A stretch of DNA of 64,000 nucleotides from an uncultured Patescibacteria group bacterium (GCA_937921305.1 CAKZSU010000007.1:45330-109329); one strand, 5' to 3'; counted from the first letter of the stretch, positions 45,810-64,000 are shown. Notes: a model not told the origin generated them from the letters alone. Numbers and translations are program-made.

Positions 45810-46826
45810 ACAATTTTTATCAATTTTACCTCTGTTTTTAACTTTTATTCCTACTTCTCTATCTTTGCTTCCGCACTATTAATTTACTTCTTAAGTTTAT
45901 ATTTAAAATTGCATACTCGAACAGTTTCTGCGTTTTTAATTGATTTGACTTTCTCTATATTATCATTGCTAATGATTTTTTTCAGCATTCTTCATCAAAC
46001 TTACACGATCTGAAAACCATGGTTTCTTTCTATCAGTTGATGCAAACCCACATACTTGCTTCTTTTGATATCAGGTGCATTGTCTAATATTTTGTTCATT
46101 ATACTCAGCTAAACAAGCACATTGGTGTTCTTCGTTCTCATTTGAAGACAAAAGAACTTAAAAAGCTGTTTTAACTACTAATACTAGATACCCTTGGGAA
46201 AACAAACAATAAACAATAAAAAGAGGCAACAAGGATAGGAGAATAAAGGTTTTAGAGGAATTCTAAAAGCTTAATTCGCTCACAAAGCACACAGTGTAAA
46301 TACAGTTTGTCTCGTAATACTCATTGATATTCATGATAGACGATAAATTCATTTACCATTTGTCTAAAGCTCAATAGATGAAGGGCGGTTGAATAGAGTA
46401 GTCTGACCGATACAATGACTCGCATATGCGGGCATACAACCAAGAAGAAACTGGACGATATGGGCATTTCCCATTATTTTTCAGATCTCTATTCTCCCCA
46501 ACAGAATGGAAGAGAGGAAGGGTTCCACCAAGCATGAATACATGAATGATTAAAACGATCTGTTGCCCGATCTGACAATAATCACTCCAATGGTGCGCTG
46601 TATTGAATGAACAATACAATAACTAAAAGGTTTCATCAATGTATTAGTTACAAAATGCCGGAGAAATACGGCGCTCTGTACCAACAACTAGGAGATCAAC
46701 CATTCTCTATCTCTAGAGGATGAAAACAAGGCTGTTGACTTACATCACTTATTAGTTTATCATTTAAGAAGTAAGAAGTGCAAAATGAAAACAATTAAAG
46801 TATTCTAAAAAATAGGAGGAAAGCAT

Positions 46827-47192
46827 ATGAATATTATTCAAAAAATATTAGCACAAAATCAACAAACACAACTTAATAAGGGATCGACGATAATAGGTAT
46901 AAATCAACCAGAAAATTTTAAAGTTTCTGATGTTGGAACAGCAATAAAAAATGTTATAAATGCCTCGCTTGTCATAGCAGCTTTAGTTGCTTTTATTTAT
47001 CTCATTTTGGGGGGAATTCAATGGATAACATCTGGAGGAGACAAATCAGCAATGGAATCGGCAAGGAACAAAATTACCCAAGCCATAGTTGGACTTATCA
47101 TCGTTGCGGCGGCATACGCAGTAATGAATCTTGTGTCTTCATTCTTAGGTCTGAACATCACTAACTTAGATATAGGAAATATTTATAAATAA
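46827..47192 (+). CDS. T4SS pilin-like protein, close paralog of 22889..23296 and 23335..23706
   Basis: FIYLILGGIQWITSGGDKSAMESARNKITQAIVGLIIVAAAYAVM. There is a strong RBS, AGGAGG. Confidence 0.65.
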   Translation: MNIIQKILAQNQQTQLNKGSTIIGINQPENFKVSDVGTAIKNVINASLVIAALVAFIYLILGGIQWITSGGDKSAMESARNKITQAIVGLIIVAAAYAVMNLVSSFLGLNITNLDIGNIYK

Positions 47193-47414
47193 ATCATCAT
47201 AAGTAAAGATAACAAAAAAAAATTTTAAATTATAAGTATAAGTTGCAACGATTTATAACAAAATAGACTATTTGCAATTAAAATCATCTAGATGTACATA
47301 GTTAATAGTTCAAGCTCATTAATTATAGAGAGTGAAGGATAACTAATTTATGGATTTTTCCATATCTCATATTCGATTGTAATGAAAGTGTGATTTTTCC
47401 CAGATTTTGTTTTA

Positions 47415-47445
47415 CTAATCTCTTTAAAAATCTAATCTCTTTAAA
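47415..47445. promoter_or_regulatory. 14-nt direct repeat (ctaatctctttaaa, two copies) immediately upstream of the second locus-B pilin gene
   Basis: Seen directly in the sequence at 47415-47428 and 47432-47445. Confidence 0.4.
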
Positions 47446-47455
47446 GATAAATAAA

Positions 47456-47878
47456 ATGAGAACAAGATTGTTCATAACATTTCTTTTTGTCACTATTCTT
47501 TTTTTCATAGAAACAAAAACTAAAGCGTATGCCAACTCAACCTGGGAAAATTGCTTATATGATGGTGCCGCAACGATTCAATGCTTTGTTCCCCTTTTTG
47601 GAAGCATTGTTACAGCAATCGTCCAAATCGCCGGCGTTGCACTATTTATTATGTTTATAATATCTGGATATAACTTTTTAATGTCAGGAGGAAATCCAAA
47701 ACAACTGGAACAAGCAAAAAATACATTAACTTATGCTATAATAGGAGTTGTTGTTATTGTAAGCGCATACCTTATTTTGCTTATCATAGGACAATTTACT
47801 GGTGTAGATGTGACACGATTTGAAATACCAGACAGACTAAATGATTCCTCAAGGACACAAACCAACAAAGTAATCTAA
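47456..47878 (+). CDS. T4SS pilin-like protein with signal peptide. The ORF track starts it at 47390.
   Basis: VQIAGVALFIMFIISGYNFLMSGGNPKQLEQAKNTLTYAIIGVVVIVSAYLILL. Confidence 0.6.
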   Translation: MRTRLFITFLFVTILFFIETKTKAYANSTWENCLYDGAATIQCFVPLFGSIVTAIVQIAGVALFIMFIISGYNFLMSGGNPKQLEQAKNTLTYAIIGVVVIVSAYLILLIIGQFTGVDVTRFEIPDRLNDSSRTQTNKVI

Positions 47879-47885
47879 GTAATCC

Positions 47886-49499
47886 ATGTATTGTTTTATG
47901 AAACAATCAATGAATTATTCAAAAGAAAAGAAAGGATATAAAAAAACAATCATCTGTGGTTTTCTTTCACTTGTTAACCCCACATGTATAAGCGAAGTAA
48001 TGGAGTATCTTTTCAAGAAGACATCGTCATTAAAATTCACTTTTCTACTTACCCTACTTGCACTAACCATCTTTGTATTGGCAAGACAACATGTTGTTTA
48101 TGGTTGGGCATTTATCACGACAAAAGACTATACAGAAAACATGAAACAAACGATAAACGGACAAATTAATGGAGAAGGGTCGGGAACATTCTTTCCTCTT
48201 GTCCAAATCGCGGCGATAAATTGCGCTATGACATCATTCGAAAAAGATGGGAAGAATGGAAGCGGATATTGTCCAGAAAATTTAAAAAGTTTGGGGTTAA
48301 TTCCTAGCATCGCAAGGATTAATGATTCTTTTTATCACGCGCCGCCAGCAAATTTAGCGCTATGGATCAAAGACACCGCAACAACGCTAGGATTGATACC
48401 AAAATCAGCGTACGCGCAACAAGGCATTGGATTTAGCGGAATGCAACCACTTCTTGATATCTGGAAAGCGTTTCGAAATCTTGCGTATGCTTTATTATCG
48501 TTGGCTATTGTCGTTGTCGGTTTTATGATTATGTTTAGAAAAAAAATTGACCCACAGACCGTCGCATCGATACAAGAAGCTCTTCCAAGAATTATTATAG
48601 CGCTCATTCTAATAACATTCTCGTACGCGATTGTGGGGTTGTTTATAGACTTAATGTATGTAATCATATTTGTTATTTATCAAATATTCACCGCGTCTGG
48701 GATTATCAGCATGGAAACAATAAGCAAACTCCAGAGTATTCGAATAAGCATTTTTGGCATCCCTATTTCCACACAAGGAAGACCACTTCAGCAAGTTATC
48801 CTTAATGGCGACATAAGAGAAGTGTTTGCCACAGTATTTCCAGCGGGAATGAATGATTTATTTACAATTGGATCGCAAATCCTTAATGATGGACAAAATC
48901 CTATCAATGCAATTATTTTCGGAACAATTGGAGGATTGTTGCTTGGAGTGATTCTCAATATTCTTCTTTTAATACTTATGATTAGACTCTTTGTTATGTT
49001 TTTAGCCGCTTATCTCCAGATCGTCTTTCAGCTTATCTTTGGGCCATTATATATTCTTTCAGATGTTCTACCAGGGAGTAACAACACAAGCACGTGGATT
49101 AAAAACCTTATCGCAAACTTATCTGTCTATGTCGTATCAGCAACAGTATTCCTTCTCGCAATCGCATTTCATTCGCGAACAGGGTACTTTTCTGGACAAA
49201 TTTATGAATATAACTCAACATATGGGAAAGAATTATGGATTCCTCCATATACGAGTATAATGCCAACATTTAGCAGCGTGAGCGCGCTATTCACTATTGG
49301 GGTTCTCTTCCTTCTTCCAAGCATTGTAAAACAATTTAAAGAGGGAATTAAATCCACTGGGGGAATGAACCCCGCATCGGGAATTGGAGGAGGACTGTCT
49401 TTAGCCTACAATTCTGCTCTTCAAATTGGTCTTGTGGCAGCCAACTTCTTTAGAAGAGGAGAAAGAGGCGCTGGCAGAGGCGGTGGCGAACAACACTAA
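47886..49499 (+). CDS. Polytopic inner-membrane protein, VirB6/TrbL-like T4SS channel component
   Basis: 537 aa with at least eight transmembrane helices and a Gly-rich C-terminal tail. It sits immediately downstream of the pilin genes. Confidence 0.5.
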   Translation: MYCFMKQSMNYSKEKKGYKKTIICGFLSLVNPTCISEVMEYLFKKTSSLKFTFLLTLLALTIFVLARQHVVYGWAFITTKDYTENMKQTINGQINGEGSGTFFPLVQIAAINCAMTSFEKDGKNGSGYCPENLKSLGLIPSIARINDSFYHAPPANLALWIKDTATTLGLIPKSAYAQQGIGFSGMQPLLDIWKAFRNLAYALLSLAIVVVGFMIMFRKKIDPQTVASIQEALPRIIIALILITFSYAIVGLFIDLMYVIIFVIYQIFTASGIISMETISKLQSIRISIFGIPISTQGRPLQQVILNGDIREVFATVFPAGMNDLFTIGSQILNDGQNPINAIIFGTIGGLLLGVILNILLLILMIRLFVMFLAAYLQIVFQLIFGPLYILSDVLPGSNNTSTWIKNLIANLSVYVVSATVFLLAIAFHSRTGYFSGQIYEYNSTYGKELWIPPYTSIMPTFSSVSALFTIGVLFLLPSIVKQFKEGIKSTGGMNPASGIGGGLSLAYNSALQIGLVAANFFRRGERGAGRGGGEQH

Positions 49500-49688
49500 A
49501 AACAACAAACCGATCTATGGGATAAATTAAGAAGCATAAAAAATTTCCAAGAAAGAAAAAGATCAAAGATAGTGTTGGTTACAAAATTAATACCAGCACA
49601 AAACAATTTGTTATCAACCCCGCTCTACGCTATATTACTAAAAGTAAAATAAAAAGATCAAACCTAAGTCATTAACCTGTTTCATCAA

Positions 49689-52616
49689 TCAATGATGTCC
49701 ACCACCACCAGAACCACCTTCTTTGCCTGAAAACTCATCAAGAGCTTGAGTAACTGCCAAAAGTAAAAGTGTTGATAATCCGACTATGAAAACAACTCTC
49801 ATTGTTGGTATCAATCGATCTGTTAATCGAATTTTCAAAAGTTCCCTATAAAAGTGCTCATTTTCTGGTGTGATAATTCCTTTTCCTTCAAGCATATGCA
49901 TGATATGGATCCGCTCACCAAGATCCCACGCTTTTTGCCCTTTACCTCGAATCTTTTGCATCTCGCTTGCATACAAACCAGGAACAAGGTCAATAACCCA
50001 CTCAGAAAACAACTGTGCATACCACCTGGGAGTATTTAATTTTATTATTGCTTCCATAATTTTCTGAAACTTTTCTTGCGCACCCTCTCTTCCGCTTTGA
50101 TTTTCCAGCGCCGCAACAAATTCCGCAAGCTTTTCAATGTCTTGAGGGTGACGAACAAAATAATTGACCTGCTCTCGAATGCCATACATAGCCCCCAAAT
50201 CCCCATGATATATACGAGACCAATAGTCGTTTTGTTCAATCAATGGATTATGTCGCCCCAAAGCATGCATCGGAACATCGGCAATCGAAAGAACTTTGCT
50301 CCATAAATAATTTACATCCTCCTCATCTTTATCTTCTTTCGGATGAACAGCATGATGGTGTCCGTGCGATGGCTCGAACTGAAGACGAAGTTTTCTTGCG
50401 ATATCATCTTTTCTTCTTTTCAAAAACAATAATAATTCTCCAATCACCGGCTGATTCGTCTTTAAAGCCTCTCTGTGAGATGCGCTCATTTTATCCGGAT
50501 CAAATACCATATCAGGTGTCCCCAGCTGAATTTGAAGTTTCATAAAAAGAGCGGCAGAAACCGTTTCTTCAAATTGTCCAAGATTAGCAAATCCGTAGCG
50601 AGAAAGAATGCTCCGCAACTCTTGATCGTTTTCATAAAGACTTAATAATGGGAGCATGTGTGTATCTTTTTCAAGAAGAAGATTAAAGGCTTGTCTTCTT
50701 TTATCAAAAACATCTAGTGTATCACCAGGCTCTCTAATTCTCATCCATAATCCAGCGTATTTGTACCCAGCGTTGTCTAATGCCTCAAGATATCGAGCGA
50801 TTCGAAACCCAGAACTATATGGATCGTTGAAGTCACTCATAAGCTCATCGATTGCTCCCACCCGCCCAAGAGCTAAATAAATAATTTTTTGCTCTTCTTT
50901 GCTAATCATTCCCCATTTTTGCTGTAAAAAGTATGACGGTCTCCACAGGGAAATAATTGCTGAATACGGATCGTTATCAAACCTGCTCGGATCATCGGGA
51001 AGCTTTGATTCTCGAGCGATCAAAAGTGGTTTTCGAAGCGAAACAGTAAATATTCTGTCGGCTCTCCGAACAATTCGTTGTTTTGTCTGCTCGTCAATAT
51101 CTCTTCCTTCAAAAAGCTGATCAACAAATTGTCGTAGTTTTTTTTCTAACTCTGAAATATCTGATTGTTCAAATCGATGATTGGGTTTTGTATGAATAAT
51201 CTCCAACAGCGCTTGCTCAGCATATAACGCGACCTTTGCTATAGGAGCATCAACGCCTGCAACAGATCTATTTAGTTCACCAATTATTTGTTTTAAAAAT
51301 AAATCTGACGCGCTTCTCTGAATAATTCCTATTTTTTCTCGATCAAATGGCGGTCGAGACAGTCCATGGTTTACATCGTGAAGGGCAAGAATCATATTCA
51401 CTCTGTCTTCAAGCTTTTTTCTCAGATCTGGATGATTGGTAAAGGCGTACAGTTTAATTTCAGCTATCTTTCTCCGTAATTCCTGATAATTTGTGTCAAG
51501 TTGCAATTCATGACTAAACTCAGATCGCTCCTCAATCAAATCTAATATAGGATCTAAATACGAAAGAACCTCCTGAAAAACCCTCTCTTTGTCTTCTTCT
51601 GACGCACCATCTGGAATTCTAAACCGAAGGATTTCTTGCATTTCATTATTCCGAATTTGTAATTCCTGCGGATTATCAATTGCCCTTCTATCATTTCTTA
51701 CGTCTTGAGCATATAATTTAAAATCTTCTTCTAACTCTTTAAATTTTTCTCTATATACCAATTGTACCCAATCAACATAGTCATTAATATTAATTTCTGG
51801 ATCAGAAAGAACAGACGACATTTCTTGCTCTACTGCTTCTCTATGTTTCTGAAGCAATTGCTCGTAGAGTTCATCTCGATTAGCGCCTATAACACCACTC
51901 TGAAGCTTTTCAATTTCTTGAAGTTTTCTTTCACCCGAAAAGGAAGTATCTCCCATAATTGCAAGAAGCTCCAACTCTAAAGCCATTGCTTTTGCAAGAA
52001 CTTCTTTTGTTAGCTCTCTTTTTGCTTCCTCAAACAACACGCCCCTTAACTCATCCGCAATAATTTGCGCTTCTTGCTCTTGTTTTTTTGTTTGTTCGTC
52101 AATAGGATTATCACCCTCTTGAGACACAAATGGTGGTGTTTTGGGATTTTTTTCCTCTTCCGCAATCTTTTTTCCCAATCGTCGGATTTTTGTTCTTTCT
52201 TCTTTATCCAAGGAATATTGAGTTTGTTGTTCTCCTTGTTGTTCTCCTTGTTGTTCTCCTTGTTGTTCTCCTTGTTGTTCTCCTTGTCCAGTTCTCCTGT
52301 CTTTCTCCAGCTCCTTTTGTGCTTCTTCAATTTGCAATCTCGTTCTTATCACAACTTCATTTTTAGAATCTTTTGGAAGAGCATCAGATAATACTCGAAT
52401 TTTCTCTTCTAAAGAAAGATTGCCGTATTCTGTTTTATACTTTTCTTCCGCGATTCGATTAAACAATTCTTTCAATTCTAAAAAAATAGGATCTTTTACT
52501 CGTCGATGTGATAGATCCTCCTCTCGTGTAGATCTACTTGACCTTGCTGCTACTTCTATGTTTTTTAAAACTTTCCTTAATAACCAATTTTTAGCTTCTG
52601 GTCTTGACATGTACAT
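49689..52616 (-). CDS. Large alpha-helical hypothetical protein (975 aa) with a tandem (GEQQ)x5 repeat and a C-terminal transmembrane anchor
   Basis: The repeat is encoded by five 12-nt units (ttgttgttctcc) at 52224-52283. C-terminus VVFIVGLSTLLLLAVTQAL followed by a Gly/His tail. Confidence 0.5.
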   Translation of the reverse strand: MYMSRPEAKNWLLRKVLKNIEVAARSSRSTREEDLSHRRVKDPIFLELKELFNRIAEEKYKTEYGNLSLEEKIRVLSDALPKDSKNEVVIRTRLQIEEAQKELEKDRRTGQGEQQGEQQGEQQGEQQGEQQTQYSLDKEERTKIRRLGKKIAEEEKNPKTPPFVSQEGDNPIDEQTKKQEQEAQIIADELRGVLFEEAKRELTKEVLAKAMALELELLAIMGDTSFSGERKLQEIEKLQSGVIGANRDELYEQLLQKHREAVEQEMSSVLSDPEININDYVDWVQLVYREKFKELEEDFKLYAQDVRNDRRAIDNPQELQIRNNEMQEILRFRIPDGASEEDKERVFQEVLSYLDPILDLIEERSEFSHELQLDTNYQELRRKIAEIKLYAFTNHPDLRKKLEDRVNMILALHDVNHGLSRPPFDREKIGIIQRSASDLFLKQIIGELNRSVAGVDAPIAKVALYAEQALLEIIHTKPNHRFEQSDISELEKKLRQFVDQLFEGRDIDEQTKQRIVRRADRIFTVSLRKPLLIARESKLPDDPSRFDNDPYSAIISLWRPSYFLQQKWGMISKEEQKIIYLALGRVGAIDELMSDFNDPYSSGFRIARYLEALDNAGYKYAGLWMRIREPGDTLDVFDKRRQAFNLLLEKDTHMLPLLSLYENDQELRSILSRYGFANLGQFEETVSAALFMKLQIQLGTPDMVFDPDKMSASHREALKTNQPVIGELLLFLKRRKDDIARKLRLQFEPSHGHHHAVHPKEDKDEEDVNYLWSKVLSIADVPMHALGRHNPLIEQNDYWSRIYHGDLGAMYGIREQVNYFVRHPQDIEKLAEFVAALENQSGREGAQEKFQKIMEAIIKLNTPRWYAQLFSEWVIDLVPGLYASEMQKIRGKGQKAWDLGERIHIMHMLEGKGIITPENEHFYRELLKIRLTDRLIPTMRVVFIVGLSTLLLLAVTQALDEFSGKEGGSGGGGHH
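52224..52283. repeat. Perfect 5 x 12-nt tandem repeat (ttgttgttctcc) within the coding region of the 975-aa protein
   Basis: Seen directly in the sequence. Confidence 0.9.
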
Positions 52617-52653
52617 ATTTTATCATGAAAGAACGAAAAAATGGAGGGGTTGC

Positions 52654-54840
52654 CTAAGTTTTCCACACCTGCTTCTTCCCATATCTCTCTCGCGAGGAAC
52701 GAATGACTTTTTGTCTGTTTTTGTTTCTGCTGTTTGGCAATGGGAGGGTCGTGGCAAAAAATGGATTTGACGTGTGATTGTCGATTGATAATTTCATGAT
52801 GGTTTGATAATTGCCGAGCCCAACTAATTCTTCTGGCTTATATTTTCCACCAAACTCTTTAGAGAGTATATGCGCGTCAGACGCGCCAACACCAAAAGAA
52901 ATTAACGATCCCACATTTCCGAAGATCGCCTTCTGAATATCTTCGTCAATTTGCCCGATGTATTGATTGGCAAGCATCAAATTTAACCGATATTTTCGAG
53001 CCTCTGAGAGAATTTTGATAAAACTTCTCGTCGCGAAGTTTTGAAACTCGTCAACATACAAATAAAAATCCCTTCGGTCTCGCTCTTCAATATAGACTCT
53101 ATTCATCGCGGCAAGCTGCATTTTTGTAATCAGCATCGCGCCAAGAAGCGCGCTGTTATCCTCCCCAAGTTTTCCCTGAGAGAGGTTTACTAAAAGAATT
53201 TTCCCGTGATTCATGATATCTTCCAAATTGATCGTTGAGGCAGGATAGCCGATAATCTGACGAATTGTTTGGGACGAAAGAAACTGACCGACTTTATTCA
53301 AAATCGGAGAAATTGCTTCGCTTTTCAGTTGTGGAGGCATTTTTTCAAATTCATTCATCCAAAAATTTTTTAATATCTGATCTGATAATTTCTCCACAAC
53401 ATTCTTTCGATATCGATCATTCGCAAGAAGCTCTGGAACCTGCAAAAATGTTGCGTGCGGAACATGCAACAAAGTCAAGATTGTATTCCGAAGAATATAT
53501 TCTAGTCTTGGTCCCCAACTATGAGCATATAGCTTAAAAAAGATTGAAACAATACCAGACGCAACGAGTTCGCGATAGGTATCGTTTTTCACCTCAAGAG
53601 GATTGATGCGAAACGGATATTCAATATCAGACGGATCAAAATATGCAACATCATTAATCCGAAATGAGGGAATAAAATCAAGGATCACATCGCACAGATC
53701 GCCATGAGGATCAATTACCGCCAGACCTTCCCCATTTCTCATGTCGTTAATCACCATATTTGCGATAAGCGTGGACTTTCCTGCACCAGTTTTTCCAACC
53801 ACATAGATGTGTTTTCTTCTATCATCTTTTTTTATCCCGAACGTCGTTAACTCATTTTTATGCTCTGTTCTCGCAAAAAAATTGATTCGTTTTTTCTCTT
53901 CTTCATTGTCCGTCGCAACAGGAAGATTGTCCGGCGCTTCTCCTGTCATCTTTGATCCCCACGCAATATTTTTCACCATAGACAAAGAAGCTCCTGGTGG
54001 ATGCCATAACGAGGCAAGCTCTCGAACTGTAAAGATTTGATTTCTCGGAACAGTCTTCCATGATCGCTCAAGAAATGCTCGCTCAAATCGTTTTTTCAAA
54101 AAAAATAATGGATCGGCCAGCTTTAAGCCGTTTCCATCTCCCGAAGTAAACACGCCGTAGGTTCCAGAAATAGACTGGATCATATCTTTTGCTCGCTCTT
54201 TTGTTGGTGCGACAGCAAGAAGACGAATCGCCCCATGAAATCCTATCTGTTGAATCTTTTCCTCAATAATTGACGCCTGAGGGTGTGGCTTTGTCCGTTG
54301 TGGATTCATCGGGTCGGGAACGCCTTTTATAAGCATCCGAGAAACAGTTCGTTGCCAGCCTTGACCAGCGGGAGAAATCCATAGATGAATCGCGACTGCC
54401 TCATTTACCTGAAGCTTTGCTAGTTGACCAAACACCGACGCCAACATATCCACATCTTTTGCATCTTTATATGTTCGCAATGAAAAATAATATGGGTTTA
54501 AAAACACGAGTTGAGACGACTCGTGAGGTAACGAAAAGAAACTTGGAAGATAGTCTTTCACCCGTAAAAGAATCACCTTAGGATAATGCGCAGCTATCTG
54601 ACTCTCAACATATCGCACTGCATGCTCTGGAATCCCAACAAATGTATGAATTTTTGTATGCAAACAAACAAACTCAAAAGTGAACCAATGACTCGCTCGA
54701 CGAAGACCAAAAATTGTTCGCAACAATCCTCCGTGATACCCAACAGATCCAATCGCAGAAAACACTTGCTCTATTGCTTCTGGTCCCTCCTCGCTTTCTG
54801 GGCTATTCCGAACTTCAAAAAGAACAATATGTGTATTCAT
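52654..54840 (-). CDS. virD4: VirD4/TraG/TraD-like type IV secretion coupling ATPase (paralog 2). It lacks an N-terminal transmembrane helix.
   Basis: Walker A YVVGKTGAGKST, Walker B DFYLYVDEFQNF, ILSEARKYRLNLMLANQYIGQIDEDIQKAIFGNVGSLISFGV. Confidence 0.7.
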   Translation of the reverse strand: MNTHIVLFEVRNSPESEEGPEAIEQVFSAIGSVGYHGGLLRTIFGLRRASHWFTFEFVCLHTKIHTFVGIPEHAVRYVESQIAAHYPKVILLRVKDYLPSFFSLPHESSQLVFLNPYYFSLRTYKDAKDVDMLASVFGQLAKLQVNEAVAIHLWISPAGQGWQRTVSRMLIKGVPDPMNPQRTKPHPQASIIEEKIQQIGFHGAIRLLAVAPTKERAKDMIQSISGTYGVFTSGDGNGLKLADPLFFLKKRFERAFLERSWKTVPRNQIFTVRELASLWHPPGASLSMVKNIAWGSKMTGEAPDNLPVATDNEEEKKRINFFARTEHKNELTTFGIKKDDRRKHIYVVGKTGAGKSTLIANMVINDMRNGEGLAVIDPHGDLCDVILDFIPSFRINDVAYFDPSDIEYPFRINPLEVKNDTYRELVASGIVSIFFKLYAHSWGPRLEYILRNTILTLLHVPHATFLQVPELLANDRYRKNVVEKLSDQILKNFWMNEFEKMPPQLKSEAISPILNKVGQFLSSQTIRQIIGYPASTINLEDIMNHGKILLVNLSQGKLGEDNSALLGAMLITKMQLAAMNRVYIEERDRRDFYLYVDEFQNFATRSFIKILSEARKYRLNLMLANQYIGQIDEDIQKAIFGNVGSLISFGVGASDAHILSKEFGGKYKPEELVGLGNYQTIMKLSIDNHTSNPFFATTLPLPNSRNKNRQKVIRSSRERYGKKQVWKT

Positions 54841-54935
54841 GATAATTGCATATCTAATTGTAATAGAAATGAAACATGTTTGATATGTCGCGTTGTCTTG
54901 CGATTTTGATTGTTTCTTTTTACAATAATCATATC

Positions 54936-56069
54936 ATGCTTGAACAGCACCCTGTTCCTCAAAATGTTACCAGCTTTCAATTCAAACTTATCGGTGATAT
55001 GACACTCAAGCAATTTGGGTATCTTGCAGGAGGTGGGATTCTTGCGCTTGCATCATACAACCTCCCTCTTCCCGATCTCTTTCGATGGCCACTTGTTGGG
55101 ATTTTTGCTTTGGGGGGTATAGGATTTGCGTTTGTTCCAATTGAAGAACGACCAATGGATGTTTGGTTTATCTCGTTTATAAAAAGCGTATATAGTCCAA
55201 CATTATATGTGTGGCAACGAGAAGCGACGGTTGTCCAACAACAAAACACCACCCCAGCGTTGACGATTCCAAATATCCCCCATGTGTCAATTGCAAAAAA
55301 TGCATCATCATCGATCACAAATATGTTTTCTCGAATAAAACCACCTACGCTTCCTCAATTTAGAATAAATAAATTAAATATCCAAAAACTATCAGTGAGC
55401 GCTCCTAAAACAAACACATCAACCCCTAAAGGGCAAAACAACATGGCAAACCACACACAACAATCCCATCAACAATCAACAACACATCAAACATCTCCAC
55501 AAAACAATCCAACGCAAAATGTTCAAAACACCCATCATACGATCAATCAACCAGAACCTCAAACACAACAAAATTCCGTTGGAAACATATCAACCAAGCC
55601 AACGCTTGAAGAACAACTAAAAAAAGCATTGGAAGAAAAAAAACAACTAGAAGAAGATCTTAAAAAAATCAAGAGTGTTCTTCCTTATGGATCAAAACAA
55701 AACCAAAAACAACAAAATAAAGTGACTCAATCGCCCGCTCCGCAGCAAAACGTTCTTTCTGGTGTTGTAAAACAAAAAACAGGAGATCCACTTCATAGTA
55801 TTTTAATAACAGTCAAAGACACGAATGGCATCCCTATAAGAGCACTAAAAACGAATAAGCTTGGACAATTCTTTTCCGCAACACCGCTCCCAAACGGAAC
55901 ATATACAATAGAAGTAGAAGATCCTAAAAATGTATTTTTCTTTCAGTCAACACAGATAACATTTACTGGTGAAAAAAATAATCCAATCATTATTGTTGCA
56001 AAATCAAAACAAGACCTAGAAAGACAAAAACTTGAGCAAGTGTTGTTTGGAACGACATCAAAACCATAG
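54936..56069 (+). CDS. PrgI/VirB3-like T4SS membrane protein fused to a Gln/Thr-rich linker and a C-terminal beta-sandwich domain. The ORF track starts it at 54876.
   Basis: FQFKLIGDMTLKQFGYLAGGGILALASYNLPLP...PLVGIFALGGIGFAFVPIEERPMDVWFISFI matches the PrgI-family topology of two transmembrane helices. Confidence 0.5.
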   Translation: MLEQHPVPQNVTSFQFKLIGDMTLKQFGYLAGGGILALASYNLPLPDLFRWPLVGIFALGGIGFAFVPIEERPMDVWFISFIKSVYSPTLYVWQREATVVQQQNTTPALTIPNIPHVSIAKNASSSITNMFSRIKPPTLPQFRINKLNIQKLSVSAPKTNTSTPKGQNNMANHTQQSHQQSTTHQTSPQNNPTQNVQNTHHTINQPEPQTQQNSVGNISTKPTLEEQLKKALEEKKQLEEDLKKIKSVLPYGSKQNQKQQNKVTQSPAPQQNVLSGVVKQKTGDPLHSILITVKDTNGIPIRALKTNKLGQFFSATPLPNGTYTIEVEDPKNVFFFQSTQITFTGEKNNPIIIVAKSKQDLERQKLEQVLFGTTSKP

Positions 56070-56110
56070 AATTTTAATATATCAAAATTGACGATGCGCG
56101 TTGATTATGT

Positions 56111-56770
56111 ATGAAGCAAACAATTGTACCAATCCGATCCTCCACGCAAAAATTCATAGAAATTGAAGATGTAGACAAAGATATTGCACTGTTTGTAGAC
56201 GGATCGTGCGTTATGGTTCTTTCTGTTTCGGCGGTAAATTTTGAACTTCTCTCTGAAAAAGAACAGGAATCGCTCATTTACGCGTATGGAAATTTTCTTA
56301 ACTCGCTATCGTTTCCCATACAAATTCTTGTTCGAACACAGCGAAAGGATATTAGCTCTTATCTTCATGAACTCGAAGATCAAGAAAAGAAACAAACAAA
56401 CCCTAAACTTCAAGCAAGCATACGGTCATATCGCGTGTTTATTTCAAAAATGGTTAAGGAACGAAATGTTCTTGATAAAAAATTCTACATTGTTATTCCT
56501 CTCTCGAGTCTGGAACTTGGCATATCGCCATCTCTTCTATTTGGCAACAAAAAAAGCGGGCTTCCATATCCAAAAGACTACATTTTTGAAAAAGCAATGA
56601 ACATACTAACACCCAAAAAGGATCAAGTCATTAGACTCATTGGACGCATGGGATTAAAAGCAAAACAACTCAACACAGAACAACTTATTCAATTGTTTTT
56701 TTCTATTTACAATCCAGAAACGCCATTACCGGATAAAACCAAATTAGAACACGCACAACACAATCAATGA
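56111..56770 (+). CDS. virB4: VirB4-like ATPase, N-terminal domain (separate ORF)
   Basis: FVDGSCVMVLSVSAVNFELLSEKEQESLIYAYGNFLNSLSFPIQILVRTQRKDISSYL is typical of the VirB4/TrbE/CagE N-terminal region. Its TGA stop overlaps the ATG of the next ORF (ATGA). Confidence 0.6.
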   Translation: MKQTIVPIRSSTQKFIEIEDVDKDIALFVDGSCVMVLSVSAVNFELLSEKEQESLIYAYGNFLNSLSFPIQILVRTQRKDISSYLHELEDQEKKQTNPKLQASIRSYRVFISKMVKERNVLDKKFYIVIPLSSLELGISPSLLFGNKKSGLPYPKDYIFEKAMNILTPKKDQVIRLIGRMGLKAKQLNTEQLIQLFFSIYNPETPLPDKTKLEHAQHNQ

Positions 56771-58668
56771 ATTGGAAACACGCGATTAAAAAATTTCTTA
56801 ACCCGATGCCAGAAAACAAGCCGGTTCAACATTCGGCAACCGGCCCATTATTATTGAAAGATATTATTGCCCCGCCCTCTATTGAAGTGGATTTTGATTA
56901 TTTAAAAATTGGAGATAAATACTTTAGAAGCTTCTTTGTTGCCGGATATCCCCGTTTTGTTTCACCAAACTGGCTTCAGCCGATCATATCATTTGACCAC
57001 ACATTAGACATTTCTATGTTTGTGTATCCATCAAATTCTGCGGAAATCCTTGAAAATCTCAAAAGAAAAGTTGGAGAAATGGAAGCAACTATTCAATCTG
57101 ATCTTAAACGAGGACGGGTGATAGAACCATCTGTTCAAGTTGCCCTTGAAGACGCGCTCGCGCTTCAACAAGAACTTGCAAAAGGGGAAGAACGATTCTT
57201 TCAATTTGGTCTATATCTCACAATACCAGCGTCAAATAAAGAAGATTTAGATAAAACATCAAAACAAGTCGAGTCGACACTTGGATCACTCATGATCATC
57301 AGTAAGCGCGCAATGCTTCAAATGGAAGAAGCCTTTAAAACAACGCTTCCAATGGGTCAAGATCGCCTTGTAATAACACGAAATATGGATACTACCTCTC
57401 TTGCGACAACATTTCCGTTTACAACATCGGAACTTACCGCGAATGAAGGAATTTTGTACGGGATTAATCAACACAATGACAGTCTTGTCATTTTTGATCG
57501 ATTTCATCTTGAAAACGCAAACACCGTTGTGTTCGGGAAGTCTGGCTCCGGCAAAAGCTACTTAGTAAAGCTTGAAATTATTCGAAGCATCATGTTTGAC
57601 ACGGAAATTATTATTATCGATCCAGAAAACGAATACGAAGCGTTAACTTATATGCTGGGCGGAGAATATATCCGATTTAGCTTTAATAGTCCAACAAAAA
57701 TTAACCCGTTTGATCTGGCTCTTTTAAAAGAAAGCGGAGAAAGTGAGCTCAATCAAAAAATACTTTCGCTTCATGGGTTCTTTCGTGTTGTGATGGGAGA
57801 ACTTGATCCAACCGAAGACGCGATTCTCGATCAAGCCCTTATTTTGACGTATAAACAAAAAGGAATTACGCCAGACGAAGAAACACAAAAGAAAGAACCA
57901 CCATTAATGGAAGATTTATATAAGGTCTTAATTGGCATGGAAAACGAAATAGCTCATTCCCTTGCGAACAGAATTGAAAAGTTTGTCAAAGGAAGTCTCG
58001 TGGGGATATTTGATCAACAAACAAATATTGAGATAAAAAATCAACTGACGGTCTTTTCTATTCGAGACCTTGAAGAATCTCTCAGGCCAATCGCCATGTA
58101 TCTTATTCTTGATTACATTTGGACGCGCGTTCGAAGAAGTCTTAAAAAACGATTACTTATCGTTGATGAGGCGTGGTACATGATGCGATACCCCGACTCC
58201 GCACAATTCTTAAATTCAATAACAAAGCGAGCAAGAAAATACTACCTTGGTGTCACAACAATTTCTCAAGATGTTGAGGATTTTATTTCAACAGAATTAG
58301 GAAAAACCATCATCCAAAATAGTAGCCTACAGTTTTTGATGAAACAATCTGCAGCCGCGGTGGACAAAATCACCGATGTGTTTTACTTATCAGATGGAGA
58401 GAAACAACTGTTGATGACAGTGAATGTCGGAGAGGGGCTTATGTTTGCGGGACCAGCGCATGCAGCGATCCGCGTTGTTGCATCGCCAGAAGAACACGAG
58501 GTAGCGACAACAAAACCACAGGAGGTTCTAAAAAGACAACAACAAAACAAAACAACATATAATACTGATGAAAAAACAGATGAAAAATCAAAGAAAGAAC
58601 AATCAACAAAAAATACATCAATAGACAAGACCACAAATAGACCCATCTTTGTTGTCGAACAATTCTAG
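56767..58668 (+). CDS. virB4: VirB4/TrbE/CagE-family T4SS ATPase, C-terminal ATPase domain
   Basis: Walker A VVFGKSGSGKSYL, Walker B RLLIVDEAWYMM, and the YYLGVTTISQDVEDF block. Confidence 0.8.
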   Translation: MNWKHAIKKFLNPMPENKPVQHSATGPLLLKDIIAPPSIEVDFDYLKIGDKYFRSFFVAGYPRFVSPNWLQPIISFDHTLDISMFVYPSNSAEILENLKRKVGEMEATIQSDLKRGRVIEPSVQVALEDALALQQELAKGEERFFQFGLYLTIPASNKEDLDKTSKQVESTLGSLMIISKRAMLQMEEAFKTTLPMGQDRLVITRNMDTTSLATTFPFTTSELTANEGILYGINQHNDSLVIFDRFHLENANTVVFGKSGSGKSYLVKLEIIRSIMFDTEIIIIDPENEYEALTYMLGGEYIRFSFNSPTKINPFDLALLKESGESELNQKILSLHGFFRVVMGELDPTEDAILDQALILTYKQKGITPDEETQKKEPPLMEDLYKVLIGMENEIAHSLANRIEKFVKGSLVGIFDQQTNIEIKNQLTVFSIRDLEESLRPIAMYLILDYIWTRVRRSLKKRLLIVDEAWYMMRYPDSAQFLNSITKRARKYYLGVTTISQDVEDFISTELGKTIIQNSSLQFLMKQSAAAVDKITDVFYLSDGEKQLLMTVNVGEGLMFAGPAHAAIRVVASPEEHEVATTKPQEVLKRQQQNKTTYNTDEKTDEKSKKEQSTKNTSIDKTTNRPIFVVEQF

Positions 58669-58701
58669 GGAGAGATAATTTCCTTTATATATTTCATTTA
58701 T

Positions 58702-61700
58702 ATGAATCAACAACAAGAGCAAACTCAAACACAGCGACACCTTACTATTCTTAACGCAATTGATAAGTTATCAGCGATAACAGCAGAAACAGATGAGGGA
58801 AAAGAGAAGATAATAAACCTCTACGATTCATACAAAAACATAGTCTCTCGATTCATCCAAGAAAAAAGCCAGCTAGATGATTCTGCGAAAACTCTTTACG
58901 ATCGACTCTCATTTTCTGGGGTTGAATCCCTTTCAAAACAAGACCTTGATAGTCTTCGAAGACTAATGTTTAGCGCGCTTATCATAGAAGAGGGGAAACT
59001 GTTTCAAACAAAAGAGAAAATAGAGGGTTCTCGTCCTGATCTCATGTTTGGTGAAACACTTATGGCCATAAACGAAGGTAGAGAGCAGGCAAAAAGAAAA
59101 AAACAGGAAAAAGATCGAGAATTTATAGAACAACTTGTCCTTCAATATGGATCGGCGCTCAGATTGTCTCCAGAAGAACAAAAATCTTCACAACAAACAC
59201 TTTTACAACAAGCGGCAAATCTTCGAAAAACCTATGGAGATCGAGTAATTCCAGAGAGTGTATATATTCAGGAGGTTAAAAAAGCAATTCAAAGATTAAA
59301 ACCGTTATCTTCGGTTCGTTTAATAACTTTTACCAATCCAAAAACACAATCCTTATATGAAAAAGCGATTGACTTCTATGAACAAGGAACACTCTTTTCA
59401 AGACAAGGAATGGTGGGGCAACCAACAATAACTACCACCTCCCCACCTCTTGATAATACTCACACAGCTGGTACAACAGCTTTTCAATCCACATCGTATG
59501 AAGAATTACTTCGAGAATTGGGAAATGAACTTTTAGTAACAGTCATTTATTCTAAAATACCTAAAGAAAAAATAAATCAACTACGAATAGCAATAGCCAA
59601 CACACAAATTGAACAAAATGGGGTTGTTGTTTCTCCTGATGAATACATAGAAAAAATAACAACTATTTTATCTCACGAACCATCCCTTATCCCAAAAGAC
59701 TATGAACTTACTAATTCTTTTAAAGAGATCTATCAACGATTTCCAAATATTCAATCAATTTACCAAGAAGTAGAATCGTTTTACAGAGAAGAACGAACAT
59801 ATGAACTCCTTGCAAAAGAAATTGTTCGAAAACAAAAAGATCTTGCTATTAGAGACGATCTTCGAATTGTATATGCTCCATTTGTTGCACTAGAAGCTGC
59901 GACACATGTATTGTTAAAAACATCTCCACCAAACATTCCTCCAGAAGAAATCATTGAAAAAGCAACAGCTTTAGGAAATGTGTTTGTTGGTTATCAAATT
60001 CAAGACTATCCAAACACATCAGAGGATATCGCGCGACTCATCCAAGAAAGCATCGGTTCTCGCTATGGCGATATAGTTCAGAAACAGTCTATTGAGTTGA
60101 TTGACAAAATTATCGGTCCACCAAGTCAAATTACTGAAGAAAGCAAAAAAGCCATGTTGTATGAATTCATACGAGCTGACATTCAAAGAGATCTTCTTCA
60201 GATTATAGAAAATAAAGAATTATTACAACGTATACTTACGAACAATGGTAACGGACCAATGACAAGCGAAGCATTTCAACTCTTTGTTCAAAGCCCATTA
60301 TTTGCCTTCATAGAACAAACAATCAAACAACAATCAAATCAACAACACGGAGGTGGTATTGGTGGACTTTTTCAAATTGTTTCTTCAGCGCAAGGACTTA
60401 CCAATCTCACTCCAGAAACCAATGCGGCGCTCTCATTTATTTTCACCGCGGGAGACCTGGTTGAAATTCAAAGAAATGAAGAGTTATATAACCGATTTAT
60501 TAGCGCGTTTCCTGAGTTATCAAAAGACGGAAAACTTCCAAAAACACCACAAGAAGCGTTTTTTGCGTTGGTTTTTGCTAGTGTTTATCCCAATGAACAA
60601 GAGCGCTTTTTTGAAACAATAAAAGAATCTCTTCGAGAAGATCCAAGTGGAAAATTTTACCATCTTGGGTGGCTAAACCATATGATCGATCATCTTAAAA
60701 AAGAAGCTGCTCACCGATTATTATTACTGAGCAAGCCATATATCACCAACATTTTAAGACTTGGAAGGATAGATAAGTTACCATTTTTTTTGGGGAAAAA
60801 AATTTTCGGATCAATTGGTCGTGGATTAGTAAAAATTGGAATTGGTAAGGTCGCATCACTTGCAACAAAGTCTGCATTATTCCTTACCGGTCCAGTTGGG
60901 GCAGCCATTGAGACTGCTTCAAGGGTATTAGATATGGTAAAAATATTAGCCATATATATATTTGGCGATGTTTCTTTTATAAAAAAAGGCATAGAATCAA
61001 TAAGTATAGTAAATATCATAGTTTATATACTGGGAGGAATCTTGCTTGGGGTTTATTTCTTCTCTTCTCCTCAATCAAATCCAGTATTGATAGAACAAAA
61101 AATTATTCAAAGTTCAATAGATGATTGGACACTTACAAGTGGAAGCAAAGATATTCCAATGATTAATTGTAGTCAAGAACCAACAAACCCTGTTTGTTCG
61201 ATTTGCTATACAAATGGACAAAGAGATCCAACAAAATGTATTTGGCCTGTTTCATCAGGGTGTATCACACAAGGACCCAATCCTAATCATAAAACAGAAC
61301 CAAATGGACAAGGAGTCGATATTGCAACAGAATTTAACACACCTATAAGAGCAATGTTCCCAGGAAGAGTGATTGAGGCTCGGTGGCATTTTGTTGATAA
61401 TCAAAAGACAGAAAATCCCAATTATGGTAACATGGTCCGAATAAAAACATCAACAAACCCTTCATTTATTATTGTTTATGCTCACTTACGACAAACAAAT
61501 ACTGTACAACAAGGAGATACTGTAACTCCAGACACAATCATTGGATATGTTGATAACACTGGTTACGGAACAGGAACACATTTGCATATGGAAATACAAG
61601 GTGTTCCCGCTGGAAACGTTTTGCCTTTTCCTGTTCCACCTTGTGTTGGATTATCTGATTGTTCAACTCAAATCTCAAACTCAGGAAATTCCTCTTGTTG

Positions 61701-61704
61701 GTAG
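58702..61704 (+). CDS. Giant (1000 aa) protein: a roughly 700-aa alpha-helical N-terminal region, transmembrane segments and a C-terminal M23-family metallopeptidase domain. It is a candidate T4SS-associated cell-wall hydrolase.
   Basis: The C-terminal GQGVDIATEFNTPIRAMFPGRVIEARW...YGNMVRIKT...GYVDNTGYGTGTHLHMEIQG contains the H.H and HxxxD motifs of LytM/M23 peptidases. Confidence 0.7.
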   Translation: MNQQQEQTQTQRHLTILNAIDKLSAITAETDEGKEKIINLYDSYKNIVSRFIQEKSQLDDSAKTLYDRLSFSGVESLSKQDLDSLRRLMFSALIIEEGKLFQTKEKIEGSRPDLMFGETLMAINEGREQAKRKKQEKDREFIEQLVLQYGSALRLSPEEQKSSQQTLLQQAANLRKTYGDRVIPESVYIQEVKKAIQRLKPLSSVRLITFTNPKTQSLYEKAIDFYEQGTLFSRQGMVGQPTITTTSPPLDNTHTAGTTAFQSTSYEELLRELGNELLVTVIYSKIPKEKINQLRIAIANTQIEQNGVVVSPDEYIEKITTILSHEPSLIPKDYELTNSFKEIYQRFPNIQSIYQEVESFYREERTYELLAKEIVRKQKDLAIRDDLRIVYAPFVALEAATHVLLKTSPPNIPPEEIIEKATALGNVFVGYQIQDYPNTSEDIARLIQESIGSRYGDIVQKQSIELIDKIIGPPSQITEESKKAMLYEFIRADIQRDLLQIIENKELLQRILTNNGNGPMTSEAFQLFVQSPLFAFIEQTIKQQSNQQHGGGIGGLFQIVSSAQGLTNLTPETNAALSFIFTAGDLVEIQRNEELYNRFISAFPELSKDGKLPKTPQEAFFALVFASVYPNEQERFFETIKESLREDPSGKFYHLGWLNHMIDHLKKEAAHRLLLLSKPYITNILRLGRIDKLPFFLGKKIFGSIGRGLVKIGIGKVASLATKSALFLTGPVGAAIETASRVLDMVKILAIYIFGDVSFIKKGIESISIVNIIVYILGGILLGVYFFSSPQSNPVLIEQKIIQSSIDDWTLTSGSKDIPMINCSQEPTNPVCSICYTNGQRDPTKCIWPVSSGCITQGPNPNHKTEPNGQGVDIATEFNTPIRAMFPGRVIEARWHFVDNQKTENPNYGNMVRIKTSTNPSFIIVYAHLRQTNTVQQGDTVTPDTIIGYVDNTGYGTGTHLHMEIQGVPAGNVLPFPVPPCVGLSDCSTQISNSGNSSCW

Positions 61705-61741
61705 AGAATATATGGTTTGTTTATTATAACAATAAGAGAGT

Positions 61742-62695
61742 ATGAATAAAAAAATCTTGTTTTCTTTATTTGTTTTTTTAATTCTATTTGTGTTTGCATC
61801 AATTGCTTTTTTCATCTTCTCCTCAAAAAAAGAAAAACAAGTTGTTCTTCCACCATTAGAAAGTGTTCCAACATATCCATCAAGTCAAGAATTTGAATCA
61901 ATACCCGAATCGAATTTCTCATACATTACTGAACCACCGAAGATACCAAAAACACTTCCGGTTTTTACATATACCACAAAAGATATATTTCCGCTTGTTA
62001 TTGATTTTGCAAAGAAATCTAATTTCTCAATAAATTATACAGAAATTAGTCCTGGAATTTTTGATTTTCAAACAACATCAGCGCTTCTTACATTTAACAA
62101 ACAAGCACATTCTCTTTCGTTTTCTTGGAATATAAATAGTGGGAAGAGTATTTTTTCTTCTTATGAAGACGTTTTTAAAAAACTCGAAGAATCACAAATA
62201 ACACTGTCTTTTTCACTAAAAGAACGAAATGATAAACAAAATTTTGAAAACGAAGGGGATGTTGATCTTTCGAAACAATTACAAAGAAAAACTTTCGATC
62301 TGATTCTTCCAGTTGGATACCCTTTTATATTAGATCCTATTAATAGGACATCATTATCTTTTACAACACATGTTTTTAATGGGATAACTTCCTTCCTTGT
62401 TCGAATTCCTCCTGTCGAAATCACAAAAAAAGAAGATCGACTCATGATTCAAGCAGATGAAATCCTTCTCCTTTTAAAGAGCAAAAAAGCAGGATTATAT
62501 ACAGTAAGCAATATCCCTCCAACAACAATGTATACAACTCCCAATTTCACTCATGTATTTATTCAATCTGTAGACATTATATATATGAAATCTCCATCAG
62601 AAGAGCTTTTGATTCCGTTCTTTAAAATATCTGGTATTGGAAAAGGAAGACAAGAAGAACAATATGTTGAATTCTTTATGATTGGAATCAGATAA
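61742..62695 (+). CDS. Hypothetical N-terminally membrane-anchored protein
   Basis: 317 aa with a single N-terminal transmembrane helix. No motif recognised. Confidence 0.35.
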   Translation: MNKKILFSLFVFLILFVFASIAFFIFSSKKEKQVVLPPLESVPTYPSSQEFESIPESNFSYITEPPKIPKTLPVFTYTTKDIFPLVIDFAKKSNFSINYTEISPGIFDFQTTSALLTFNKQAHSLSFSWNINSGKSIFSSYEDVFKKLEESQITLSFSLKERNDKQNFENEGDVDLSKQLQRKTFDLILPVGYPFILDPINRTSLSFTTHVFNGITSFLVRIPPVEITKKEDRLMIQADEILLLLKSKKAGLYTVSNIPPTTMYTTPNFTHVFIQSVDIIYMKSPSEELLIPFFKISGIGKGRQEEQYVEFFMIGIR

Positions 62696-63970: not shown

Positions 63971-64000
63971 GAGAAAATAATGATGCCTTGATATCTTCTA

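Follow-up and report, generated by a model that had tools for sequence, protein, structure and literature searches.

Within a 64,000-nucleotide stretch of DNA from an uncultured Patescibacteria group bacterium (GCA_937921305.1, CAKZSU010000007.1:45330-109329), called the window from here on, we analyzed the gene cluster at positions 46827-62695, which we read as a chromosomal type IV secretion system (T4SS) of the kind typical for Patescibacteria. The cluster adjoins dnaN and an oriC-type region. When the open reading frames (ORFs) of the window were checked, all ten ORFs of the cluster were found at the coordinates assigned to them in a preliminary description of this DNA. The cluster and its immediate flanks carry the following features (aa, amino acids; TM, transmembrane):

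46735-46826, plus strand: promoter-like site TTGACT-17-TATCAT (10/12 match) with an AGGAGG ribosome-binding site, ahead of pilin 1
46827-47192, plus strand: VirB2-like pilin 1, 121 aa; T4SS_pilin (PF18895) 36.9 bits, cut-off 26.6
47456-47878, plus strand: VirB2-like pilin 2, 140 aa; PF18895 44.5 bits, cut-off 26.6
47886-49499, plus strand: VirB6-like polytopic membrane protein, 537 aa; VirB6/DotA-like predicted fold, Gly-rich tail with terminal His
49689-52616, minus strand: 975-aa protein, all-helical and charged; one TM helix at the C-terminus, tail GGSGGGGHH
52654-54840, minus strand: VirD4/TraG-like coupling-type ATPase, 728 aa; three coupling-protein Pfam families above cut-off
54876-56069, plus strand: PrgI/VirB3-like membrane protein with beta-sandwich, 397 aa; PrgI (PF12666) 27.8 bits, cut-off 27
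56111-56770, plus strand: TrsD-like protein, 219 aa; free-standing counterpart of the VirB4 N-terminal domain
56767-58668, plus strand: monoderm-type (MPF-FATA) VirB4 ATPase, 633 aa; ATGA overlap with the end of the TrsD-like ORF
58702-61704, plus strand: M23 hydrolase, 1000 aa; Peptidase_M23 69.9 bits at residues 870-966
61742-62695, plus strand: 317-aa bitopic protein; N-terminal TM helix and ectodomain of ~290 aa, convergent with dnaN
62710-63813, minus strand: dnaN, beta clamp of DNA polymerase III; the three DNA_pol3_beta domains are all matched (E 1e-20 to 1e-30)
63848-63971: six DnaA boxes (TTATCCACA, at most 1 mismatch); oriC-type region upstream of dnaN, reaching the window end

Core components of the secretion apparatus

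VirB4 matched the CD1110-family model NF045971 with 406 bits (cut-off 325) and P-loop_TraG with 95.8 bits. Its best solved relative was the Firmicute VirB4 4AG5 (E 1e-42), as compared with an E-value of 9e-8 for the Gram-negative TrwK, and judged by its sequence the protein appears to group with Patescibacteria homologues. Related loci were gathered via VirB4, which yielded a sample of 80 Patescibacteria loci from metagenome-assembled genomes. VirB4 identity to these loci was 60-79%, with Gottesmanbacteria giving the best matches, followed by Woese-, Curtiss-, Beckwith-, Shapiro- and Daviesbacteria, and this ranking places the source organism in the class Microgenomatia. Looking up the exact VirB4 sequence gave no match; an identical VirB6-like protein assigned the window to a 207-kb metagenome contig of ENA (ERZ6864144).

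The ORF ahead of virB4 gave matches to VirB4_plasma (positions 104-233, E 1e-9) and to NF041427, the TrsD/TraD family (E 3e-8). A TrsD-like ORF precedes VirB4 in 78 of the 80 loci and the stop codon between them is retained in 77 of these 78; thus, the split is ancestral and not a frameshift. The complete PrgI-TrsD-VirB4 core was found in 78-79 of the related loci. In the PrgI fusion, a Q/N/T-rich linker joins the membrane domain to a prealbumin/CarboxypepD_reg-like beta-sandwich. The two ends of this protein are kept in 75 and 79 of the 80 loci, respectively, and the linker is not conserved. The mechanically called ORF starts 35 bp from the divergent ATPase start, and 25 residues precede its PrgI domain; translation probably begins at the in-frame ATG at 54936.

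On the other side of this divergent pair, the 728-aa ATPase passed three coupling-protein families of Pfam (TrwB_AAD_bind 28.1 bits, cut-off 20.5; TraG-D_C 28.3, cut-off 22; T4SS-DNA_transf 24.0, cut-off 20.1), and FtsK_SpoIIIE stayed below its cut-off. The only matches among PDB sequences were two TrwB chains (1e9r, 1gl6; E 6e-5). Walker A (GKTGAGKST) and Walker B (LYVDEF) motifs are present. The N-terminal 320 residues form a soluble domain without assigned fold that is 51% conserved, and the C-terminal part reaches 77% identity in 32-33 of 40 Gottesmanbacteria-type loci. An arrangement of the coupling ATPase back-to-back with PrgI was observed in 33 Gottesmanbacteria-type loci among the 80.

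Both pilins are above the family cut-off and share 30% identity over 77 aa. Pilin 1 consists of two hydrophobic helices and has no evident cleavable leader. For pilin 2, the mechanically called ORF starts with GTG at 47390, and the ATG at 47456 gives the 140-aa protein that is also found in public gene calls; its N-terminus resembles a signal peptide (MRTRLFITFLFVTILFFIETKTKAYA). Both proteins also matched the pilin-like family NF045849 of Mycoplasma integrative and conjugative elements (ICEs) below the cut-off, the match of pilin 1 being weak. The promoter-like site ahead of pilin 1 was the highest-scoring match of the region, but the total number of such sites did not exceed the shuffle expectation, so that it is weak evidence for a pilin 1 promoter. 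Between the tRNA synthetase gene and pilin 1 lies about 1 kb of AT-rich DNA (45810-46826, GC ~0.33), in which we found no convincing ORF and no Rfam match. A third pilin-domain protein is encoded far from the main locus (about 11896-12771, plus strand). It begins with a globular part and ends with a VirB2-like domain, the two being joined by a Pro-rich linker, and its T4SS_pilin score of 25.8 bits is just below the cut-off of 26.6.

Structure prediction supports a VirB6 fold, i.e. a polytopic helical bundle, for the 537-aa protein. Sequence profiles did not link this protein to R388 TrwI/VirB6 or to Legionella DotA (identity 10-18%), and the profile of its family gave no significant match with PDB sequences. 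Compared with R388 TrwI, it is about twice as large and has an extra N-terminal extracytoplasmic region and the Gly/His tail. The VirB6-like gene (49460-49499) and the convergent gene of the 975-aa protein (49689-49730) end with the sequences ..GRGGGEQH and ..GGSGGGGHH, respectively. Such a Gly-run/His tail was detected in 25 of 1095 ORFs (at least 150 aa) of the related loci, and 23 of these 25 were VirB6-like or large tail-anchored genes. In the window, these two genes are the only ones with this tail (2 of 94 ORFs). As a strict motif the tail was rejected: the full motif is present in 27 of 120 VirB6-like homologues, which makes it a soft tendency.

Large and variable accessory proteins

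Median identities over the Gottesmanbacteria-type loci (tblastn) indicate that conservation along the locus is sharply bimodal. VirB4 (73%), the PrgI N-domain (69%), TrsD (61%) and the PrgI beta-sandwich (50%) constitute the conserved set. In contrast, the VirB6-like protein (33%), the M23 domain (32%) and the 317-aa protein (24%, detected in only 5 loci) are weakly conserved, and no match at all was obtained for the 975-aa protein, for the PrgI linker and, across the 80 loci, for hydrolase residues 1-740. DnaN, with a median identity of 42%, stays behind VirB4 and behind the C-terminal part of the coupling ATPase (77%), and we read the better conservation of the two ATPases as a sign of strong purifying selection.

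The 975-aa protein is highly charged and free of cysteine, and no match was found in Pfam, NCBIfam or PDB. Near its N-terminus, a perfect 12-nt tandem repeat (52224-52287, 5.3 copies) codes for (GEQQ)5, a possible site of length variation. Homologues are rare: three were found among 1.84 billion representative proteins and one in a word-indexed set of 5.8 billion. Each of the Gottesmanbacteria-type loci carries an ORF of 1000-1400 aa at the same site and in the same orientation, tail-to-tail with the VirB6-like gene, and these positional equivalents usually end with a hydrophobic C-terminal segment and a Gly-run/His tail. BLASTP gave nothing significant when the 975-aa protein was compared with its equivalents in the relatives L001 and L002, or when L001 was compared with L010. 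A hidden Markov model built from the three homologues detected none of the positional equivalents, and a Pfam scan of 16 of these large proteins returned nothing. When the family profile of the 975-aa protein was aligned with that of the 16 equivalents (hhalign), we obtained a probability of 98.1 (E 1e-13) over 454 columns that span the C-terminal half, the anchor and the tail of the 975-aa family. By this profile-profile match, the 975-aa protein is not an orphan but belongs to a conserved family that diverges very fast.

The profile of this family gave no significant match with PDB sequences. An AlphaFold2 model based on four sequences was discarded as unusable (pLDDT 56.8); Foldseek returned generic alpha-solenoids with TM-scores below 0.2. 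In the closest relative with a clear homologue of the 975-aa protein, the large protein is encoded in one block together with six pilins and the VirB6-like gene, away from VirB4 and the coupling ATPase, and this separate block suggests that the large protein belongs to the pilin/VirB6 module. The idea that it might be operonic cargo of the coupling ATPase was rejected, since nadD and nadE lie between both genes in relatives and the block is separate.

The 1000-aa hydrolase is composed of a hypervariable helical N-terminal part of about 740 residues, hydrophobic segments at about 742-787 and a Cys-rich M23 ectodomain. Residues 1-740 contain no cysteine; every cysteine of the protein falls within its last ~200 residues, which surround the M23 domain. 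This distribution fits a cytoplasmic N-domain, a membrane passage near 742-787 and an extracytoplasmic peptidase. The M23 part found tblastn matches in 33 of the 80 loci; the N-domain and the 975-aa protein have no similarity to each other. In the HxxxD motif the His is replaced by Gly (NGQGVD here, as compared with NHTGLD in TagE and HYGVD in lysostaphin). The window and 31 relatives retain the Asp, the His of the AHL motif and HLH. Ten residues ahead of the Asp the window has another His; in many relatives a His stands seven residues ahead of it. From its sequence, the protein is a putative wall-remodelling subunit in the role of VirB1.

Next to dnaN, the 317-aa protein had one homologue (99% identical) in the word-indexed database, and neither the protein nor its family profiles matched PDB, Pfam or NCBIfam. 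At this site, about 30 related loci carry an ORF of comparable length whose product likewise has an N-terminal TM segment, with an alignment identity of 13-24%. On topology and position alone, this protein is a candidate for the role of VirB8, for which no protein is known from these systems.

Taken together, most gene assignments of the preliminary description were confirmed. The profile searches that it had proposed for the individual ORFs matched the pilin, PrgI, VirB4, coupling and M23 families. Its two VirB2-like pilin genes both exceed the PF18895 cut-off, its VirB6-like polytopic protein is borne out by the predicted fold only, and in its PrgI/VirB3-like protein fused to a beta-sandwich the PrgI domain scores above and the beta-sandwich below the cut-off. 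For the proposed VirD4-like coupling ATPase, three coupling-protein families were passed and TrwB was the sole PDB match; the ATPases did not fall into FtsK/HerA families in place of VirB4/VirD4, although the coupling ATPase also passes DUF87/HerA. The 1000-aa peptidase with TM segments carries an M23 domain as claimed, and not CHAP or SLT. Two statements needed correction. The VirB4 ATPase is indeed present, but its description as one ATPase encoded as two ORFs should be replaced by the known TrsD plus VirB4 arrangement. Similarly, two very large helical proteins without known domain had been reported, which holds for the 975-aa protein; the other one is the N-terminal part of the M23 hydrolase.

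Chromosomal setting and comparison with known systems

Downstream of the core, dnaN is found on the opposite strand in 56-57 of the 80 loci at a median distance of 3.3 kb, and in L001 dnaA follows dnaN and the cluster includes nadD and nadE. In the window, 7 of 27 DnaA-box matches fall in the last 300 bp; by our own arithmetic, six boxes in 125 bp correspond to a chance of about 1 in 10^10 at the window-wide match density. The upstream flank consists of housekeeping genes (Tyr/Trp-type tRNA synthetase, FtsH, 5'-3' exonuclease). The GC content of the locus (0.33-0.39) is set in a window of mostly 0.34-0.46 that peaks at 0.46-0.49 over the mevalonate genes, and no marked compositional break is visible. 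In L001, L002 and L010 the NAD biosynthesis genes nadD and nadE lie between the coupling ATPase and the large tail-anchored protein (about 4.4-7.4 kb). They are missing at the equivalent position of the window, which suggests that the cluster was rearranged around housekeeping genes.

No relaxase family (Relaxase, MobA_MobL, TrwC, Mob_Pre, Rep_trans) was matched in 50 scanned window ORFs of about 130 aa or more. There was no recombinase in or flanking the 16-kb locus, where no search aimed at flanking repeats was made. The only recombinase that we saw is a Xer-type tyrosine recombinase (24417-25277), 22 kb upstream of the locus, which has the two-domain layout of XerC/D (Phage_integrase plus SAM-like N-domain). 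It is flanked by two tRNA-Met(CAT) genes and a tRNA-Ile gene with the uncommon anticodon TAT (23775-25938), and the local GC content of this segment is lower (0.37-0.38). The preliminary description placed the locus on the chromosome next to oriC, which is borne out by the adjacent dnaN, the six DnaA boxes beyond it and the dnaN/dnaA synteny in relatives; it was also correct in noting that a relaxase is missing, to the extent of the 50 ORFs scanned. Its remark that no integrase is nearby is true for the locus itself but overlooks the Xer-type recombinase within the window. The synteny comparison it had called for showed that the core is conserved together with dnaN; the relatives show no ICE or plasmid setting with a relaxase, and nad genes are interleaved. 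Synteny with dnaN/dnaA, the housekeeping genes and the lack of a relaxase match speak against an ICE or plasmid and in favor of a system that is fixed in the chromosome.

Other genes of the window were noted in passing. On the minus strand, a gene string at 25975-31200 codes for a 758-aa and a 137-aa protein, both without annotation, and then for a 782-aa paralogue of the coupling ATPase. An AdoCbl-II riboswitch (31132-31200) lies between a gene of a PduO-type cobalamin adenosyltransferase (31229-31792) and the 758-aa gene, and a cobalamin riboswitch in front of such a coupling-type ATPase string is odd. A complete-looking mevalonate block (14248-20727, minus strand) comprises HMG-CoA reductase, an HMG-CoA synthase-like protein, thiolase and three GHMP kinases/decarboxylase, followed by undecaprenyl-diphosphate synthase. 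Its GC content is 0.45-0.49, as compared with ~0.40 in the rest of the window, and in the relative L084 the mevalonate block adjoins the pilin/VirB6 module. Further genes at 328-1692, 5610-6314, 6438-6870 and 32241-35451 encode an N6-adenine DNA methylase (Eco57I-like), a ComFC-like protein, tmRNA, a lamin-tail-domain protein and a sortase.

Quinonero-Coronel et al. (2025) surveyed 3,035 Patescibacteria genomes (PMC12102498) and described Patescibacteria VirB4 as a monophyletic clade nested in MPF-FATA, with TrsD as its most frequent partner. PrgI/VirB3, VirB6, arrays of divergent VirB2-like pilins and M23/LysM hydrolases are also listed there, relaxases are reported to be almost wholly absent, and dnaA/dnaN are enriched near virB4, explicitly in Microgenomatia. 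The architecture seen at our locus, without relaxase and close to dnaA/dnaN, is thereby on record for 2,400 genomes. The same source gives VirB6 as scarce in Microgenomatia and finds VirB3 with virB4 for only 22.6% of the homologues of this class. A gene for a coupling protein close to virB4 is given for just 148 of 5,713 homologues, and the t4cp homologue of Southlakia epibionticum is reported as not essential. In contrast to the 22.6%, a PrgI-like gene almost always precedes TrsD-VirB4 in our 80 loci, where the pilins are followed by a VirB6-fold protein. Using transposon sequencing, Wang et al. (2023) found that the T4SS cluster SEML1_0006-0019 of S. epibionticum and its pilin array are essential for epibiotic growth (PMC10633639); the cluster has no recognizable coupling protein, which led the authors to suggest protein export. 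A review of 2025 lists the Patescibacteria systems as a new T4SS group (PMC12857230). The locus is a further example of this system already described in 2023-2025, including the missing relaxase and the dnaN/dnaA position, and the earlier proposal of a dedicated machine of an episymbiont rather than a conjugative element agrees with these three publications.

With the Patescibacteria-clade T4SS, the locus shares the MPF-FATA VirB4, the separate TrsD-like ORF, PrgI/VirB3, VirB2-like pilins and VirB6, as well as the M23 peptidase downstream of virB4, the lack of a relaxase and the chromosomal position by dnaN/dnaA. It differs in the VirD4-like ATPase that stands back-to-back with the core and that is not recognizable in the Southlakia cluster. 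Further differences are a VirB6 found by fold, a PrgI with a conserved C-terminal beta-sandwich and only two pilins at the site. The large tail-anchored family and the bitopic protein by dnaN do not appear in the descriptions of Patescibacteria T4SSs given in the available portions of the two primary papers (PMC12102498, PMC10633639).

All three gene types of the Mycoplasma ICE module (Mbov_0395 pilin-like, Mbov_0396 TM protein, Mbov_0397 VirB4) were matched here. The 537-aa family matched NF045889, and TrsD and VirB4 matched NF045975 (VirB4 with 260 bits), all below cut-offs. The two systems share a wall-poor or monoderm setting and a pilin-like subunit, but the Mycoplasma VirB4 is a single 894-aa protein, unlike the TrsD plus VirB4 pair. 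Moreover, the Mycoplasma ICE carries a DDE transposase and is mobile, whereas the locus is fixed beside oriC. A comparison with Gram-positive systems (pGO1/pSK41 Trs, pCF10 Prg, pIP501 Tra and C. difficile CTn2 with the VirB4 CD1110 and the VirD4 CD1115) revealed the CD1110-type VirB4, PrgI/VirB3, a membrane-anchored wall hydrolase by VirB4 and the lack of outer-membrane core parts as common features; TrsD is a feature of the pGO1 subclass. On the other hand, the locus has no relaxase and no recognizable VirB8-like PrgL/TraM/TcpC, it has pilins where the Gram-positive systems have adhesins and no VirB2, its hydrolase is M23 and not SLT+CHAP, and its coupling ATPase has no N-terminal TM domain. 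The machine derives from the conjugation apparatus of Firmicutes, Tenericutes, Actinobacteria and Archaea and is of monoderm type.

Interpretation and possible functions

These data suggest, with a probability that we put at roughly 0.85, that the locus is a chromosomal, vertically inherited and non-self-transferring T4SS typical of Patescibacteria in a Gottesmanbacteria-like (Microgenomatia) genome. The roles of its parts are proposed by analogy with studied T4SSs. The VirB4 ATPase, whose N-terminal domain is supplied by the free-standing TrsD-like protein, would dock on the PrgI/VirB3-like membrane protein, and the VirB6-fold polytopic protein would be the membrane channel. The membrane-anchored M23 peptidase may open the wall locally, and the two divergent VirB2-like pilins would be extracted from the membrane into a surface filament. 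The soluble VirD4/TraG-like ATPase probably feeds or receives substrate. Lineage-specific, fast-evolving parts (the tail-anchored protein of ~1000 aa, the cytoplasmic N-domain of the hydrolase, the bitopic protein by dnaN) would complete the apparatus. It would be expressed from its origin-proximal site and used at host contact, moving macromolecules (protein or DNA) but not its own DNA. A function in host contact is proposed because the homologous system of Saccharibacteria is essential for epibiotic growth.

Several observations weigh against this interpretation. In a Kyte-Doolittle scan the coupling-type ATPase has no TM segment, unlike VirD4/TraG with their N-terminal anchor, its top Pfam match is DUF87/HerA (32.9 bits, cut-off 23.2), and its paralogue elsewhere in the window (25975-28323) is 35% identical over the full length. 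Because of these three points, we infer its membership in the machine from adjacency only. Both TrsD-like matches and all VirB6-related sequence matches are below the curated cut-offs, CarboxypepD_reg scores 27.8 bits on the PrgI fusion and thus stays under its cut-off of 32.3, the first zinc ligand of the M23 domain is out of its canonical place, and a VirB8-like part was not demonstrated at the locus. A divergent relaxase might also be hidden among the unannotated 575-aa and 758-aa proteins of the window. Finally, the essentiality data stem from another class (Saccharimonadia) and from a cluster without recognizable coupling protein, so that they would apply here by analogy.

Two more specific functions were considered, which we rate about equally and each as possible but rather unlikely. 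The first one is a DNA-import device resembling archaeal Ced or H. pylori ComB, which would use host DNA as nucleotide source and the coupling ATPase as motor. The conserved coupling-type ATPase (TrwB-like P-loop, TraG-D_C) that adjoins the core in this lineage would fit such a device, and there were weak matches to the CedB and CedD models; these scores are far under the cut-offs (CedB 58.7 bits vs. 700, CedD 32.5 vs. 600) and no CedA-type protein was identified. ComB-type uptake systems are not known to have VirD4, which counts against this function, and the sequence gives neither direction nor substrate. The authors of the 2025 survey favor import of DNA or other macromolecules (PMC12102498), and Patescibacteria are described as generally lacking de novo nucleotide synthesis (PMC10633639), but the non-essential t4cp homologue of S. 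epibionticum and the Southlakia cluster without recognizable coupling protein, as reported in the same sources, argue in the opposite direction.

The second function is protein export into or onto the host cell, the exported proteins being effectors or a translocator that inserts into the host membrane, with the hypervariable large proteins as cargo or host-specificity parts. The 975-aa family and the hydrolase N-domain diverge past tblastn detection while VirB4 stays at ~73%, and the 975-aa family keeps only its C-terminal half, the TM helix and the Gly-run/His tail. Many T4SS substrates carry C-terminal signals, which would be in line with such a role. However, the 975-aa protein has no signal peptide, and its tail anchor would equally fit a cytoplasmic membrane-tethered subunit. 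Moreover, all-helical charged scaffolds can diverge fast without an arms race, and the same soft Gly/His tail is present on the VirB6-like channel protein, which is not cargo. Protein export was also suggested for the Southlakia system by Wang et al. (2023; PMC10633639).

Whether the locus is, or recently was, a conjugative element (ICE or integrated plasmid) with a relaxase and an integrase that are too divergent or lie outside was also considered. The CD1110-type VirB4, TrsD, PrgI and the Mycoplasma-ICE-like pilin and TM proteins point to descent from monoderm conjugation, a coupling-type ATPase is present, another one is encoded 20-30 kb upstream, as is a tyrosine recombinase by tRNA genes, and several large window ORFs have no annotation. 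Nevertheless, this reading is very improbable: a whole class with VirB4 identities of 60-79% keeps the synteny with dnaN/dnaA, relatives have housekeeping genes inside the cluster, neither a relaxase match nor a marked compositional break was seen, the recombinase has the XerC/D-type layout and is 22 kb distant, and in the published survey only 15 of 2,474 virB4 genes lie near a relaxase (PMC12102498).

For a chromosomal T4SS of Patescibacteria, as we prefer to read the locus, the window leaves the published picture unchanged and provides a well-preserved further example of a known architecture. It adds a protein with the VirB6 fold, few of which had been detected by sequence profiles in this class, a coupling-type ATPase that stays beside the core at 77% identity, the PrgI-beta-sandwich fusion and a recognizable family of rapidly diverging accessory proteins, which could guide experiments on substrate and host specificity. 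Much of bacterial diversity belongs to CPR/Patescibacteria, which live attached to other microbes, and their T4SS is so far the sole one shown to be essential for the growth of its owner. A speculative and in our view doubtful extension is that the T4SS of Microgenomatia has a conserved slot of fast-evolving large proteins, consisting of the 1000-1400-aa tail-anchored protein tail-to-tail with the VirB6-like gene, the 740-aa N-domain of the hydrolase and the bitopic ectodomain protein, which would act as host-range determinants, cargo or translocators in an arms race with the host. If this were true, the slot would be a first handle on what this essential machine moves.

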